Part shown: positions 28,043-33,887 of the stretch, piece by piece | How the letters are laid out: every line of letters starts with the position of its first letter | How positions within the stretch are numbered: the stretch's first letter is position 1 | DNA from: Pseudomonadota bacterium | Lineage (GTDB): Bacteria; Pseudomonadota; Alphaproteobacteria; Paracaedibacterales; CAIOTO01 | DNA: 64,000 bases | Reading direction: 5' to 3' | Assembly (NCBI GenBank): GCA_040387495.1 | Contig: JAZKDQ010000001.1 | Span: forward strand, 62,001 to 126,000 | The notes under the pieces: model-generated | What the model was told of the DNA's origin: nothing | The model's database searches: none | What the model saw: the letters and a program-made list of their open reading frames with translations, nothing else | Made by a program: the position numbers and the translations under genes

Positions 28043-28516
28043 TTAATTAGGTACATGTAAACGAGCCACTCGAATATCGCTATAACTAAGCTCAATGTCA
28101 GTGGATTTGTCATCGTTAGGTTGATCCAGTGATACCCTTATACCCGTTTCTGAAGCAAATTCCAATGTTCCTTGAAATTTCTTTCTATTTTTTATTGAAA
28201 AATTTGTTTGCAACGACACAGGTTGGCCTATAAACCGAATGAAATCCTTAGGTTTGACTAAAGGTCGTTCAAGGCCAGGCGATGAAATTTCAAGGGTGTA
28301 AGCATCAGAAATCCAATCTTCTACGTCTAACATTGGTGATATCAGGCGACTTACCTTCTCGCAATCTTCAATTCCAATGTTAACATCATCAAGACGCTCG
28401 ATCATAATTTGGAGTGTTTTTCGTATATTCCCAGTGTTTTGAATACGTACCACGGCATACCCGTCATCATGCATGACAGGCGCTATGAGGTCTTCAATTC
28501 GTTGACACAGTTCCAT
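28043..28516 (-). CDS. rimP: Ribosome maturation factor RimP
   Basis: EDCEKVSR, YTLEISSPGLERPL. Confidence 0.97.
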   Translation of the reverse strand: MELCQRIEDLIAPVMHDDGYAVVRIQNTGNIRKTLQIMIERLDDVNIGIEDCEKVSRLISPMLDVEDWISDAYTLEISSPGLERPLVKPKDFIRFIGQPVSLQTNFSIKNRKKFQGTLEFASETGIRVSLDQPNDDKSTDIELSYSDIRVARLHVPN

Positions 28517-28563: not shown

Positions 28564-29040
28564 TTACTTTTTACGAAACGCATCAAGTGTTACGACGTTT
28601 GTTTCACCTTCGGCTAAAGGCTTTATTTCTTTTTTCTCAGGCTCAAGTAAAACTGATAAATCAAGCTCTTCATATGAATCGAGTGAAGGAGTGAACTCCA
28701 GCCCAAAATTCACTGACGGATCTACAAATTTGATGACAGCATCAAATGGAACAACGATACGTTCATCTGCATTGTCAAAACTTAGTGTAACAGCAAAAAA
28801 AGTATCATGAATTTCTAAATCCCAGTATTCATGTTGCAAAACGATTGTCATATCTTCGGGATAATCTTCTCGCAAAAACTCTGGAATTTGAACGCCAGGA
28901 TAGTTTGTTATAAAATCGATATAAAAATGATGTTTTCCTGGAAGGCCATTTTTTGCAACATCTATTAAGACATCACGCATAACCTTGCGAATGGCGGTTT
29001 GCACCAGCTCTTCGTAATTGATTATGTCATTTTGCTTCAC
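28564..29040 (-). CDS. sspB: ClpXP adaptor SspB (alphaproteobacterial type)
   Basis: LPG.HHFYI.F, YPE.MTIVLQH, DPSV.FGL.F, C-terminal VVTLDAFRKK ClpX-binding tail. Confidence 0.95.
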   Translation of the reverse strand: MKQNDIINYEELVQTAIRKVMRDVLIDVAKNGLPGKHHFYIDFITNYPGVQIPEFLREDYPEDMTIVLQHEYWDLEIHDTFFAVTLSFDNADERIVVPFDAVIKFVDPSVNFGLEFTPSLDSYEELDLSVLLEPEKKEIKPLAEGETNVVTLDAFRKK

Positions 29041-29066
29041 AAGAAATCTCCTTAAGTATTTATTTA

Positions 29067-29433
29067 GTGAGGGGCATTCTGTTGCCCGGGGCCCCCCAAA
29101 CCGCTACTGGAAAACCACTGTATTATTCGTAAAACGAACTTTTAAGCAGCTTTAGCTACTACGCGACGTGTGCGGTTGCGGTTAGCAACGTTACGGTTAC
29201 GGTTTGCTGTGCGTGTTTGACCACGCCCACCAGTTGAAGAAGTACGAATTGTGCCTCTTATAAGTTTCAGTCCGATAACGGTGGTACTATGCCGAGCAAA
29301 ACGAATATCTTTATTACGCACGTCGATCCTGTTTCGTCCCCATAAAAAAGACTTGGTGGAGACGCCGGGTACCGCCCCCGGGTCCGCAACGCCTATTACA
29401 TAGACGGTTTATTGCCATAGATAGTTTCCTATC
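29067..29433 (-). ncRNA. ssrA: Circularly permuted (two-piece) tmRNA; outer ends approximate
   Basis: Piece ending GACCCGGGGGCGGTACCCGGCGTCTCCACCA (CCA at 29356-29354), 12-nt spacer, then piece starting GGGGACGAAACAGGATCGAC at 29341; acceptor stem GGGGACG/CGTCTCC with G3-U70; upstream of sspB. Confidence 0.95.
29142..29255 (-). other. tmRNA tag reading frame: GTIRTSSTGGRGQTRTANRNRNVANRNRTRRVVAKAA*
   Basis: UAAGA immediately before GGC (U-5/A-4 resume signal); open frame ending GCT GCT TAA. Confidence 0.75.
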
Positions 29434-30779: not shown

Positions 30780-31553
30780 ATGTCTGATCTTTTAAGTAAA
30801 TTAAAAGTTGTTGTTCCAAACCCAAAGGTTTCTGTGCAAAAGCCAAATATTATTTTGCTATCACTTCAAAAAATTCAAGAAGAACAATTGAGTGTTTCTT
30901 CGCAAAATATGGCGAACGCAATGCATGCAGGTTTTAAGGGCTTTATTTTATCATCTCAAGAATGTGTTTATAAAACGAATGATAAGAAAAAGGTTTCATA
31001 CGTTAAATCTGCTGGTATGACGCGGGATTTATCAGATGGTGCGTTAAATATGACGCGTAATCCATTGGATTTTGCATTGTCGGGGCCTGGTTATTTTATG
31101 GTTCAGACTGCAAATGGAAAGCGTTACACGCGAAATGGTCGATTCACGTTAGATAAAGAAAGCCGATTGACCACATCTTCAGGACAGCCTGTATTAAGTC
31201 AAACAGGAAGTGAAATCATAATTCCCAAAGATATTCAATACTTCACGGTATCTCGTGATGGCACGATGTTTATTAACGGTAATAAGGCCGGAAAACTTGG
31301 CGTGGTCGAGTTTAAGAATGAGCAAGCCATGCGTCTTGAGGGATCAAGTCTTTTATCAAGTAAAGAAGATGGAACGCCAGGAATAAAAGGGCTTATCACA
31401 CAAGGTGCTTTTGAAGAATCAAATGTATCAGTGATGGATGTAAGCATTAAATTAATTAATATAATGCATAGATTTGAAGAAGCTCAATTGTTAATAAAGC
31501 AATATGAAGAACTACAGAAACAGACAATGAATGCTTCTGCTAAGAATGTGTAG
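30780..31553 (+). CDS. flgF: Flagellar basal-body rod protein FlgF
   Basis: NMANA...GFK, T.NPLDFALSGPGYF.V, YTRNGRF, QG..EESNV; precedes flgG. Confidence 0.85.
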   Translation: MSDLLSKLKVVVPNPKVSVQKPNIILLSLQKIQEEQLSVSSQNMANAMHAGFKGFILSSQECVYKTNDKKKVSYVKSAGMTRDLSDGALNMTRNPLDFALSGPGYFMVQTANGKRYTRNGRFTLDKESRLTTSSGQPVLSQTGSEIIIPKDIQYFTVSRDGTMFINGNKAGKLGVVEFKNEQAMRLEGSSLLSSKEDGTPGIKGLITQGAFEESNVSVMDVSIKLINIMHRFEEAQLLIKQYEELQKQTMNASAKNV

Positions 31554-31586
31554 ATAATTTAAAATAGGATTTTCAAAGGTTTTTTT

Positions 31587-32387
31587 ATGAGTATTAATAA
31601 CGCATTTCATGTGGCACGAACTGGCCTTCAGATGGCTGAAAAGAATCTTGGTGTAAAAGCGATGAACATCGCTGGTCAAAATGCCGATGGTTATAAAAAG
31701 CAATATATGATTACTCTCGACCTACCTTATATAGATCAAGGTGGAGTTGGTACAAGTACGTCTAATAACAATACAATTTCACCTACTGGTACGCAGATTG
31801 GTCTGGGTGTTCAGTCGGGAGGTATTTATCGTGATTTTTCACAAGGTGAGAGTATTCAAACGAGTAACTTTTTGGATGTAATGGTAGATGGAGAAGGTTT
31901 CTTCCAAGTCACTATGCCTGATGGAAGCACAGCTTACTCACGTGTTGGTGCATTTCAATTAAGTCCAAATAATGAAATTGTGATGCCTAAAACTGGCTAT
32001 GTAGTCGCACCAGGTATTACGTTGCCAACAGGAACAACAGATGTATCAATCAATGCTCAGGGTCAAGTCTATGCTAAGGTCTCTGGTTCCACTGCTCAGG
32101 TGCTAGTTGGACAATTCCAGCTGGCTACATTTTTTAATACATCAGGCTTAAAGGCAATTGGTGATTCCATGTTTCAGGAAACGCCTGCATCAGGTACGCC
32201 GGATGTTGGTGTTCCAGGTTCAAGTCGACGCGGTAATATTAAGCAAGGCTGGCGTGAAGGCGCAAACGTTAATGCGGTTGAAGAAATGACTGATCTAATA
32301 AAGATTGAAAAAATATATGACATGCTCACTAAAATTCTTAAAACAGGTGATGCCATGATGACGGCTGCTACAAGTGTTGGGCGTTAA
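31587..32387 (+). CDS. flgG: Flagellar basal-body rod protein FlgG
   Basis: PTG.QIGLGV, GEGFFQV.MPDG..AYSR.GAF, GLKAIG...FQETPASG. Confidence 0.92.
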   Translation: MSINNAFHVARTGLQMAEKNLGVKAMNIAGQNADGYKKQYMITLDLPYIDQGGVGTSTSNNNTISPTGTQIGLGVQSGGIYRDFSQGESIQTSNFLDVMVDGEGFFQVTMPDGSTAYSRVGAFQLSPNNEIVMPKTGYVVAPGITLPTGTTDVSINAQGQVYAKVSGSTAQVLVGQFQLATFFNTSGLKAIGDSMFQETPASGTPDVGVPGSSRRGNIKQGWREGANVNAVEEMTDLIKIEKIYDMLTKILKTGDAMMTAATSVGR

Positions 32388-32409
32388 TTTTTAAATAGGA
32401 TTGTAATTC

Positions 32410-33123
32410 ATGATGAAGTTATTACGTTGTATCATTTTTGTATTATCATTTTTTATTGAAGTTGAAGTAAACGCAGAGGCATTTACAAAAATATCAGTAG
32501 AAAAAGCACTTGTTGCGGAAATTATGCAAAAAGTATCATTTGCTGATTTTGAAGCGATAGTCGATACGTGGCAAACAGGTTGGGCAATTTCTAAGGGTGA
32601 TAAATCCCTAAATATTATTGAGCTTAGCGTGACACCCGATCAGAAACGATTCAATGCTGTCGTTGCATGGGGTGATCCAACAAAAGGTGGCATCATAAAG
32701 AAAATTTCTGGCAAAATTCAAAAATTTCTGATGCTTCCTATTTTGTCTTCTCCAATTGGTCAAAAAACGGCAATTAACGAATCACACATTTCATATGTTC
32801 GTTTTGCTGATGATCAGGTGAATCCAGGAATGGCCTTAAGAAAAGAAGATATTGTGGGTAAGTTTTTGAAGGCAGGTCGTTCTCTCCAGTTTGATAAGCC
32901 GTTACAAATGACGGATTTAGAAGTGCCAATTCTCATTCGAAAGGGCGATGAAGTTCGAGTGAAATATGTAGATCGCTTTTTTGAGATTTCTATTGCAGCT
33001 ATTGCAAAAAATAATGGGTGCGCAGGTGAAAAAATATCGTTTGAAGTGGGCACTGAAAAAAAGAAGACTATTCAAGCCACTGTGCTTGCTGCCGGTCGAG
33101 CAGAGATTAGAGAGAGCTTATGA
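32410..33123 (+). CDS. flgA: Flagellar P-ring chaperone FlgA
   Basis: SAF-like region, PILIRKGDEV.V, A...G..GE.I; between flgG and flgH. Confidence 0.75.
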   Translation: MMKLLRCIIFVLSFFIEVEVNAEAFTKISVEKALVAEIMQKVSFADFEAIVDTWQTGWAISKGDKSLNIIELSVTPDQKRFNAVVAWGDPTKGGIIKKISGKIQKFLMLPILSSPIGQKTAINESHISYVRFADDQVNPGMALRKEDIVGKFLKAGRSLQFDKPLQMTDLEVPILIRKGDEVRVKYVDRFFEISIAAIAKNNGCAGEKISFEVGTEKKKTIQATVLAAGRAEIRESL

Positions 33124-33887
33124 AAAATGCATGTGCATTAATAGCATTGCTGATGCTCACAGGTTGTAATCTGGCAGAAAAACTATCGACTATAGGTGAG
33201 CCGCCTGAACTTAGTCAAATTCAAGATCCCACACGTGTGAAGGGATATCAGCCAGTCAGCATGCCAATGCCAACTCCGACAGTGATGCGTGCCGAGCATG
33301 GACCATCTTTATGGGAAGCTGGATCACGTGCGTTTTTTAAAGATCAACGTGCGGGAAAAGTTGGTGATGTGATAACCGTTGAAATTGCAATTGATCAATC
33401 AGAATCGATTGAAATGACACCAAGTATTGAGCGAAATAGTTCAGGTTCTGCAACAGTGACAAGCGCTTTAGGTCTAGAACGCAAAGCGGAGAAGTTTTTT
33501 CCTGCAAAGCAACGTTCAAGAGATCAGATTAGAAATGATGATCCTAATCCAAATTGGCTTAGTGTAGGTTCAAATCCAAAACTTTCAGGCACTTCTAAAT
33601 ATAACGTAAATGATAAAATGAAATTTAAAATAGCTGCAACCGTTTTGCAGATCTTGCCGAATGGAAATATGGTTATTGCTGGACGTCAAGAAATTCGTTT
33701 GGTGAATGAGATTCGGGAAATTCAAGTAAAAGGCATTATACGCCGAGAGGATATTTCTGCGTCGAATTTAATTAATGGCGAAAAAATATCTGAATTGAGA
33801 ATTTCCTATGGCGGACGTGGTGAATTGACTGATATGCAGACATTCCCATGGGGGCAACAGGTCATGAATAAGATTTTGCCGTTTTAA
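33120..33887 (+). CDS. flgH: Flagellar L-ring lipoprotein FlgH
   Basis: Lipobox LTGC; SLW..GSRAFFKDQRA..VGDVITV; LPNGNM.I.G.QEIR; ISYGGRG. Confidence 0.95.
   Translation: MKNACALIALLMLTGCNLAEKLSTIGEPPELSQIQDPTRVKGYQPVSMPMPTPTVMRAEHGPSLWEAGSRAFFKDQRAGKVGDVITVEIAIDQSESIEMTPSIERNSSGSATVTSALGLERKAEKFFPAKQRSRDQIRNDDPNPNWLSVGSNPKLSGTSKYNVNDKMKFKIAATVLQILPNGNMVIAGRQEIRLVNEIREIQVKGIIRREDISASNLINGEKISELRISYGGRGELTDMQTFPWGQQVMNKILPF

Follow-up and report, generated by a model that had tools for sequence, protein, structure and literature searches.

Charge covariation between ssrA tags and SspB adaptors in Alphaproteobacteria, and a basic tag paired with an acid-shifted SspB

Among alphaproteobacterial pairs of ssrA tag and SspB adaptor whose tags begin in the ordinary way, the charge of the tag residue that follows A-N-D-N mirrors the charge of SspB residues 71, 89 and 90, and this is the new observation made here. 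The pair encoded in the window (the whole 64,000-nucleotide stretch analysed) stands at the far end of this rule, with an arginine after both of its N-R-N motifs and with E71 and D89 in its SspB. This match of tag and adaptor charge suggests a naturally re-keyed pair whose binding is putative. In the textbook view an ssrA tag is short and acidic, and its adaptor-binding end hardly varies. An order that carries a basic, duplicated motif and a matching adaptor would be a case of natural peptide-receptor co-evolution in which the peptide is encoded by an RNA; the pathway itself is unchanged by the finding.

The ssrA-sspB locus and its basic tag

The features of the locus are as follows.

28564..29040, minus strand: sspB, alpha-type ClpXP adaptor, 158 amino acids, GTG start, with Pfam, PDB and fold matches
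28567..28596, minus strand: C-terminal tail VVTLDAFRKK, presumed tether to the ClpX N domain, aligning with the 2NYS tail
29048..29053, minus strand: ribosome-binding site AAGGAG, 7 bases ahead of the sspB start codon
29066..29472, minus strand: permuted (two-piece) alphaproteobacterial tmRNA gene (Rfam RF01849, 207 bits; RF04321, 118 bits)
29142..29255, minus strand: tag reading frame, 37 codons plus stop, 10 K/R and no D/E, ending VAKAA
29193..29207, minus strand: upstream A-N-R-N-R motif, tag residues 17-21; at least two A-N-x-N copies occur in 44 of 58 tags of the order
29172..29186, minus strand: distal A-N-R-N-R motif at tag residues 24-28, placed at the canonical distance of 14 residues from the end

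The window gene is a genuine alpha-type SspB. Its protein matches the Pfam SspB family (PF04386) with 144.6 bits against a cut-off of 27, and its sequence matches in the PDB are 2NYS, 2QAS and 2QAZ (E 4e-38 to 7e-30). An AlphaFold2 model of residues 5-122 (pLDDT 93.2) superimposes on 2NYS and 2QAS with TM 0.90-0.94 and Z 19.5-20.9. The initial annotation had the coordinates, strand, ssrA adjacency and quoted residues right (ORF 28564-29040(-), 158 aa), and its statement that the VVTLDAFRKK tail is intact is borne out by the match to the 2NYS tail; the protein carries the D-x-F-R-K-K ending of alpha SspBs, and the pattern L/I/F-D-x-F-R-K/R is kept in 48 of the 58 loci of the order. Window Q69 aligns to Caulobacter Q74, which we take to be an important glutamine of the groove. 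A tblastn search of the 1.66 Mb genome gave one match, so that sspB is single-copy; no second, ordinary sspB or ssrA was found in the genome, which also encodes ClpX, ClpP, SmpB, tmRNA and Lon.

Two sets of loci were compared. The order to which the genome belongs was represented by 62 genomes, 59 of them with a match, and with one locus cut by a contig end this left 58 complete loci. The outside set comprises 112 loci beyond the order with a tag beginning x-N-D-N, drawn from 16 of 80 related loci (7 duplicates were dropped and 57 had no adjacent tag) and from the best 150 of 239 SspB matches in a 251-genome sample of the class, with one genome excluded; the 89 weakest class matches, which are the most divergent SspBs, lie outside the sample.

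Adjacency of ssrA and sspB is ordinary in the class, the tmRNA lying upstream of sspB in 79 of 108 loci and missing there in 29 (class loci L140-L248, with L143 dropped as a duplicate). Hyphomonas-like genomes (L067-L139) have no tag beside sspB in 57 of 73 loci. In the window, ssrA-sspB runs directly into rimP-nusA-infB-rbfA (28043-28516 and upstream to 29472, minus strand) with 47 bases between sspB and rimP; rimP lies at most 1.5 kb from sspB in 7 of 7 loci of the genus and in 0 of 80 other loci tested, and through this genus-specific junction sspB may be part of the nusA operon.

The end of the Rfam alpha_tmRNA match, at 29066, lies 25 bases before the sspB start codon, and the tag, its frame resuming at 29255, reads GTIRTSSTGGRGQTRTANRNRNVANRNRTRRVVAKAA. 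With 37 codons, a net charge of +10 and ANRNR twice in place of ANDN, it is unlike a canonical short A-N-D-N tag of charge about -1. The other two frames were rejected, as they end in AA in 0 of 58 order loci against 54 of 58 for the frame chosen. Tags of the order run from 18 to 59 codons and from 0 to +11 in net charge (mean +5.3, n=58), whereas the ANDN comparison tags have 10-22 codons (10-13 in 103 of 112) and charges of -3 to +1. N-D-N is present in only one of the 58 order tags; the x of their A-N-x-N motifs is mostly R, S or N, and arginine follows in 52 of 100 motifs. In 42 of 53 motif-bearing tags the last motif starts 11-15 residues from the end and so spans the length of an ordinary tag; thus the long tag of the order is the ordinary layout with its charge inverted and an upstream repeat added.

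That the acidic surface of SspB serves some other basic ligand, a lineage-specific substrate or partner, while ClpX, Lon or a tail-specific protease handles the tag with no help from SspB, we regard as very improbable. ClpXP does degrade ssrA-tagged proteins without SspB, according to the excerpted text of PMC8138137, and Lon, ClpA/B, FtsH and a CtpA-like protease are present in the genome. However, the tags retain A-N-x-N, mostly in two copies, where SspB binding would require it, sspB adjoins ssrA in all 58 complete loci of the order, and the pattern AN[RSGA]N[RK] occurs only once in the 1234 ORFs of the genome.

Some tags depart from this layout. The longest (50-59 codons) belong to three of the four members of one order family, f3 (L047 = G032:C60, L029 and L026), whose tags are weakly charged and show the A-N-x-N motif hardly or not at all; in G032 there is also a second tmRNA beside an SspB fragment (G032:C77), possibly bin contamination. 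Four tags end without AA (...YLKRA, ...ARAV, ...ARIA and ...AKVA in L041 = G037, L057 = G058, L021 and L056), and for such tags ClpX recognition may be weak or have moved to another protease. Outside the order, a doubled A-N-D-N or an internal N-D-N is seen in tags of ordinary charge (L196 and L205 of family f133, L142, L166 and L174), so that motif duplication occurs without charge inversion.

Acidic residues of SspB in the order

Three parts of the SspB coding region recur in what follows.

28771..28776, minus strand: D89-N90, at the tip of the beta-hairpin 81-88/91-98, equivalent to Caulobacter G94-G95
28828..28830, minus strand: E71 (of QHE), in the loop between strands 63-68 and 72-77, equivalent to Caulobacter Q76
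28864..28917, minus strand: segment with D42, I44 and D59, a gain of acid and a loss of base; column 44 is K/R in 52 of 83 ANDN SspBs

The core of the window SspB (residues 5-118) has a net charge of -13, and the mean of the 112 ANDN-tag SspBs is -5.0; a core charge of -11 or below is found in only one of those 112 (L312, at -14). As judged from the sequences, the acid shift is real and beyond chance, but it is order-wide rather than local, and the idea that it is a peculiarity of this genome is not borne out, since E71 is acidic in 58 of 58 order loci.

The individual acids are of two kinds. Residue 71, where QHQ has become QHE, is D/E in all 58 order SspBs against 6 of the 112 ANDN loci, with Q there in 78 of 83 ANDN-tag SspBs. 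Acid at column 89 (window D) is found in 31/58 against 9/112, and at column 90 (window N) in 47/58 against 11/112. D59 has acidic counterparts in 25/58 against 3/112, with K/R in 69/112; D92 in 13/58 against 0/112; E115 in 11/58 against 1/112; and D42, which is family-specific, in 10/58 against 0/112. On the other hand, acid is ordinary at E62 (54/58 and 71/112), D63 (53/58 and 109/112), E76 (29/58 and 65/112) and E93 (55/58 and 77/112), and common elsewhere too at E58 (56/58 and 51/112) and D74 (57/58 and 58/112). The initial annotation, which took several neutral or basic positions to be replaced by D/E, saw a real shift but counted too many acids; about half of those displayed in its motifs are normal because E62, D63, E76, E93, E58 and D74 are frequent with ordinary tags, the last two partly so, while E71, D89, D42, D59, D92 and E115 do not share this distribution and are distinctive.

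The patch formed by residues 71, 89 and 90 is acidic (-1 to -4) in all 58 SspBs of the order. It stands at -2 in the window, and values of -2 or below are found in 53/58 order loci against 2/112 ANDN loci; the window protein thus lacks the canonical combination of a Q-[HYFN]-Q loop and a neutral or basic patch. Within the order, D89 is present in 10/10, 4/4, 14/14 and 3/9 members of the four strongly basic families and in 0/21 members of the six weakly basic families; K/R44 is retained in 15 of these 21 members. On EF-G, three of the strongly basic families group together in a single clade (f2 has no EF-G match), so the D89 split may be a single step.

The most acidic hairpins, D-D-E-E and D-E-H-E-E, are those of a sister genus (L031-L033, G007-G009), which also has Q-F-D in one member and an altered tail, S-F-x-A-F-K-K.

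Tag and adaptor charge outside the order

The order against the rest is a sample of one, and covariation was therefore sought within ordinary ANDN tags only. With one locus taken from each of 62 ANDN families outside the order, tag residues 5-7 were compared with the variable SspB columns in 159 tests. The best of the 159 pairs joins tag residue 5, which follows A-N-D-N, to column 90 (rho -0.58, p 7e-7), and columns 71 and 89 come third and sixth. K or R stands at 90 in 11 of 15 families with an acidic residue 5 against 6 of 47 otherwise, and acid is present at 71/89/90 in 9 of 12 families with a basic residue 5 against 4 of 50 otherwise. K/R44 was also considered as a reader of tag residue 5 and was rejected, there being no signal among ANDN tags (p 1.0).

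The triad 71/89/90 was picked after the data had been viewed; it was therefore fixed and then tried on new loci, and the held-out and metagenome sets are the only clean tests, both of them probing chiefly the acidic side. Of 38 held-out loci, whose families are partly shared with the first set, the 28 with a tag gave rho -0.69 (p 5e-5), a signal carried by the acidic side, with a basic residue 5 facing an acidic patch in one of two cases. The metagenome set was selected on tmRNA; of its 117 loci, 43 had an SspB downstream, 33 of these spanned the sites, and 24 remained under 70% identity. Here the result is weaker (rho -0.42, p 0.043; basic residue 5 with an acidic patch in 1/4), and column 91 comes first with column 90 outside the top six. 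Pooling gives 104 representatives (<70% identity) and rho -0.60; the patch is basic, neutral or acidic in 21, 13 and 0 of the 34 with an acidic residue 5, and in 1, 5 and 10 of the 16 with a basic one. The charge match persists where the two genes are not adjacent (G180, G232). Thus, the correlation between tag charge and SspB charge that the initial annotation had proposed to look for does exist, and among ANDN tags outside the order it localises to columns 71, 89 and 90.

Phylogeny was taken into account with an EF-G tree of 75 genomes, in which 18 of 72 inner branches are well supported. By PGLS on this tree, patch charge follows tag charge among the 58 ANDN genomes with t -7.3, and the remainder of the core shows no link to tag charge in those same genomes (p 0.58). 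Over all 75 genomes the remainder of the core also tracks tag charge (t -3.05), and a single subsite does not account for this trend. Strictly independent pairs number about two concordant and none opposite, too few to test. Proteome-wide acidity or GC content is not supported as a cause, as EF-G charge has no link to tag charge (p 0.33) and eight low-GC ANDN loci keep ordinary SspBs.

The trend in the rest of the core bears on a reading that we hold to be rather unlikely, in which electrostatics are diffuse and there is no defined subsite: the whole domain would be acidic so as to capture a long polybasic tag, with a faster on-rate or shielding against RNA or the basic ClpX RKH loops as the gain, and 71/89/90 would merely be the most exposed positions. 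The order does differ from ANDN SspBs at residues 8, 46, 51, 58, 59, 62 and 74 as well, and basic-tag families outside the order (f16, f135) arrive at cores of -11 to -14 through different residues. ClpX keeps its GRKH, and the RKH loops touch SspB in E. coli (excerpted text of PMC9963277). Against this, the ANDN signal is confined to columns 90, 71 and 89 and to tag residue 5. Diffuse electrostatics and a defined subsite are compatible and can both be true together.

Shared ancestry without coupling would have the basic tag and the acidic SspB arise once, by drift or relaxed selection, and be inherited together; we consider this improbable. E71 is fixed in the order at any tag charge from 0 to +11, tag length varies freely there (18-59), and the tree does not reject one clade uniting all basic-tag lineages. 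However, ANDN families beyond the order show the covariation as well, it persists under PGLS, EF-G charge and GC content fail to explain it, and the tags retain their frame, motif and terminal AA. The proposal in the initial annotation that tag and adaptor co-evolved by charge is therefore supported by the covariation outside the order, but the order itself may be one event.

The number of origins bears on this last point. Outside the order, f16, f65 and f135 (five loci) combine tag charges of +6 to +8 with core charges of -11 to -14, these acidic cores being reached by different residues: f16 has D89 only and f135 has acid at neither 71 nor 89/90. Family f130 has a non-ANDN tag with E71, D89 and D90, its tag and sspB genes being non-adjacent. 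f31, which is outside the statistics, is nested within the order on EF-G and has a basic tag apart from sspB, with QHE and D-D. The best EF-G tree has four changes to basic tags, but the AU test does not reject a single clade (p 0.116); the order is therefore counted as perhaps one event and convergence is not claimed, although from the sequences it is possible among the basic-tag lineages. The genomes of f16 (L186, L244), f65 (L206, L232) and f135 (L246) are 1.0-1.7 Mb in size and their basic tags are of ANRN type.

The rule has exceptions. In L312 an ANDN tag goes with an acidic patch and the core of -14, counter to the rule. Of the 58 order tags, 14 lack a motif or have a distal part that is not basic, and in all of these loci the SspB patch is still acidic; two of the 14 (L012, L021) carry Glu after N-x-N.

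A putative charge-reading subsite and known systems

The SspB segments around 69-71 and 86-90 presumably line the tag groove, and we take it that Caulobacter Q74A and E. coli A74Q abolish tag binding. Chien and colleagues reportedly described gatekeeper residues in the SspB groove in 2007, and some of the present positions may be among those. A profile alignment, itself weak (E 0.001, probability 22%), places Q69 on E. coli N54 and residues 86-90 on A74-G78; the charge of columns 89-90 mirrors the tag residue following N-x-N in the ANDN families. A complex prediction of SspB with the tag scored 0.02 and gave no contacts, and it is not counted as evidence for or against. No compensating change was found in the ClpX RKH loop of the one genome checked (G000), where GRKH, GYVG and RDVSGEG are intact. 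R73Q and A56V are known SspB variants (excerpted text of PMC12304284).

The nearest known systems are Caulobacter crescentus SspB-alpha (2QAS, 2QAZ) and Agrobacterium AGR_C_3712 (2NYS), which are like the window SspB in fold and 47-49% identical to it, and which share with it the TIVLQ strand, the FRKK tail and the position after a permuted ssrA. The window differs from them in having QHE for QHQ, a D-N hairpin tip for G-G (Caulobacter) or S-D (Agrobacterium), I44 for Caulobacter K49, a core that exceeds the ANDN mean in acidity by about 8 charges, and a partner tag of 37 codons, +10 and two ANRNR, where Caulobacter and Agrobacterium have ANDN-type tags. The E. coli and H. influenzae SspBs (1OU8, 1OX9, 8ET3) are distant members of the same fold (TM about 0.6, Z 10-12) with 14-22% identity and a different tail. 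As excerpted, PMC9963277 gives the E. coli tag as AANDENYALAA, acidic and of 11 residues; SspB binds its first seven residues, with the SspB tail on the ClpX N domain, while ClpX takes the terminal tag residues and its RKH loops touch SspB, and a few residues inserted between the SspB and ClpX sites strengthen binding.

We think it probable, from the sequences, fold and covariation, that this degradation module of trans-translation is ordinary except for its recognition surface, where charge has re-keyed it through a defined subsite; direct contact, an affinity preference and a role for the second motif would be the putative parts of this reading. The tmRNA would add a long tag that retains, over its last 14 residues, the familiar order of A-N-x-N, a short spacer and a terminal Ala-Ala for ClpX, with Arg in place of the Asp or neutral residues of ordinary tags and a second motif upstream. 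SspB would grip the A-N-x-N core through its conserved strand-loop, in which Q69 is kept, and would be tethered to ClpX by the FRKK tail. Residue 71 and the hairpin tip 89-90(-91) would together form a small subsite that reads the residue right after N-x-N, being basic for acidic tags and acidic for basic ones, and in the window E71 and D89 would meet the Arg after N-R-N. Loss of K/R44 and K/R59 and gain of D42, D59, D92 and E115 would lower repulsion of the remaining basic tag, and the second motif might allow rebinding or lengthen the reach between SspB and the ClpX pore. The tag ends in Ala-Ala, and therefore ClpXP should still take it directly, and the orthogonality put forward in the initial annotation, if there is any, could lie only at the adaptor step.

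A bolder and somewhat doubtful proposal is that alpha SspBs read the tag by a simple charge code, the residue after N-x-N against 71/89/90/91, which would have flipped fully in the order and perhaps two to four other lineages and so given a polarity-inverted third ssrA/SspB class, with a doubled motif and no cross-reaction with the Caulobacter or E. coli pairs. In that case selection would have favoured the long polybasic tag for some purpose and the adaptor would have followed, for example for a second fate of tagged fragments in these small-genome bacteria.

Orthogonality between natural pairs from different classes has a precedent: in Bacillus subtilis, the E. coli and Caulobacter pairs were run side by side as two separate controls of degradation (Griffith and Grossman 2008, as cited in the excerpted text of the review PMC8138137). 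Both of those pairs use acidic tags, whereas the window tag is basic, and the same excerpts of the review describe no polarity-inverted natural SspB/tag pair. They do report that both pairs are already used to control degradation or to induce dimerisation, and the window pair could serve as a further one. The excerpted tmRNA database papers (PMC11915505, PMC4131195) mention very short tags and a lysine-ending tag, and long basic tags and SspB are absent from those excerpts; the databases and supplements behind them probably list the present tag sequences. In the searchable literature we found nothing on Holosporales tmRNA tag peptides, permuted Rickettsiales tmRNA tags or SspB Q74A, nor an adaptor-tag charge rule, which may be published, as the primary SspB-alpha papers fall outside that scope. 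The covariation points to three testable residues and predicts specificity rules for ordinary alphaproteobacterial pairs.

The lineage is probably among the Holosporales-like protist associates, a lifestyle that we infer. Its 1.66 Mb genome carries a flagellar basal-body cluster (flgF-, flgG-, flgA- and flgH-like genes, the first of them checked against Pfam) at window positions 30780-33887 on the plus strand.
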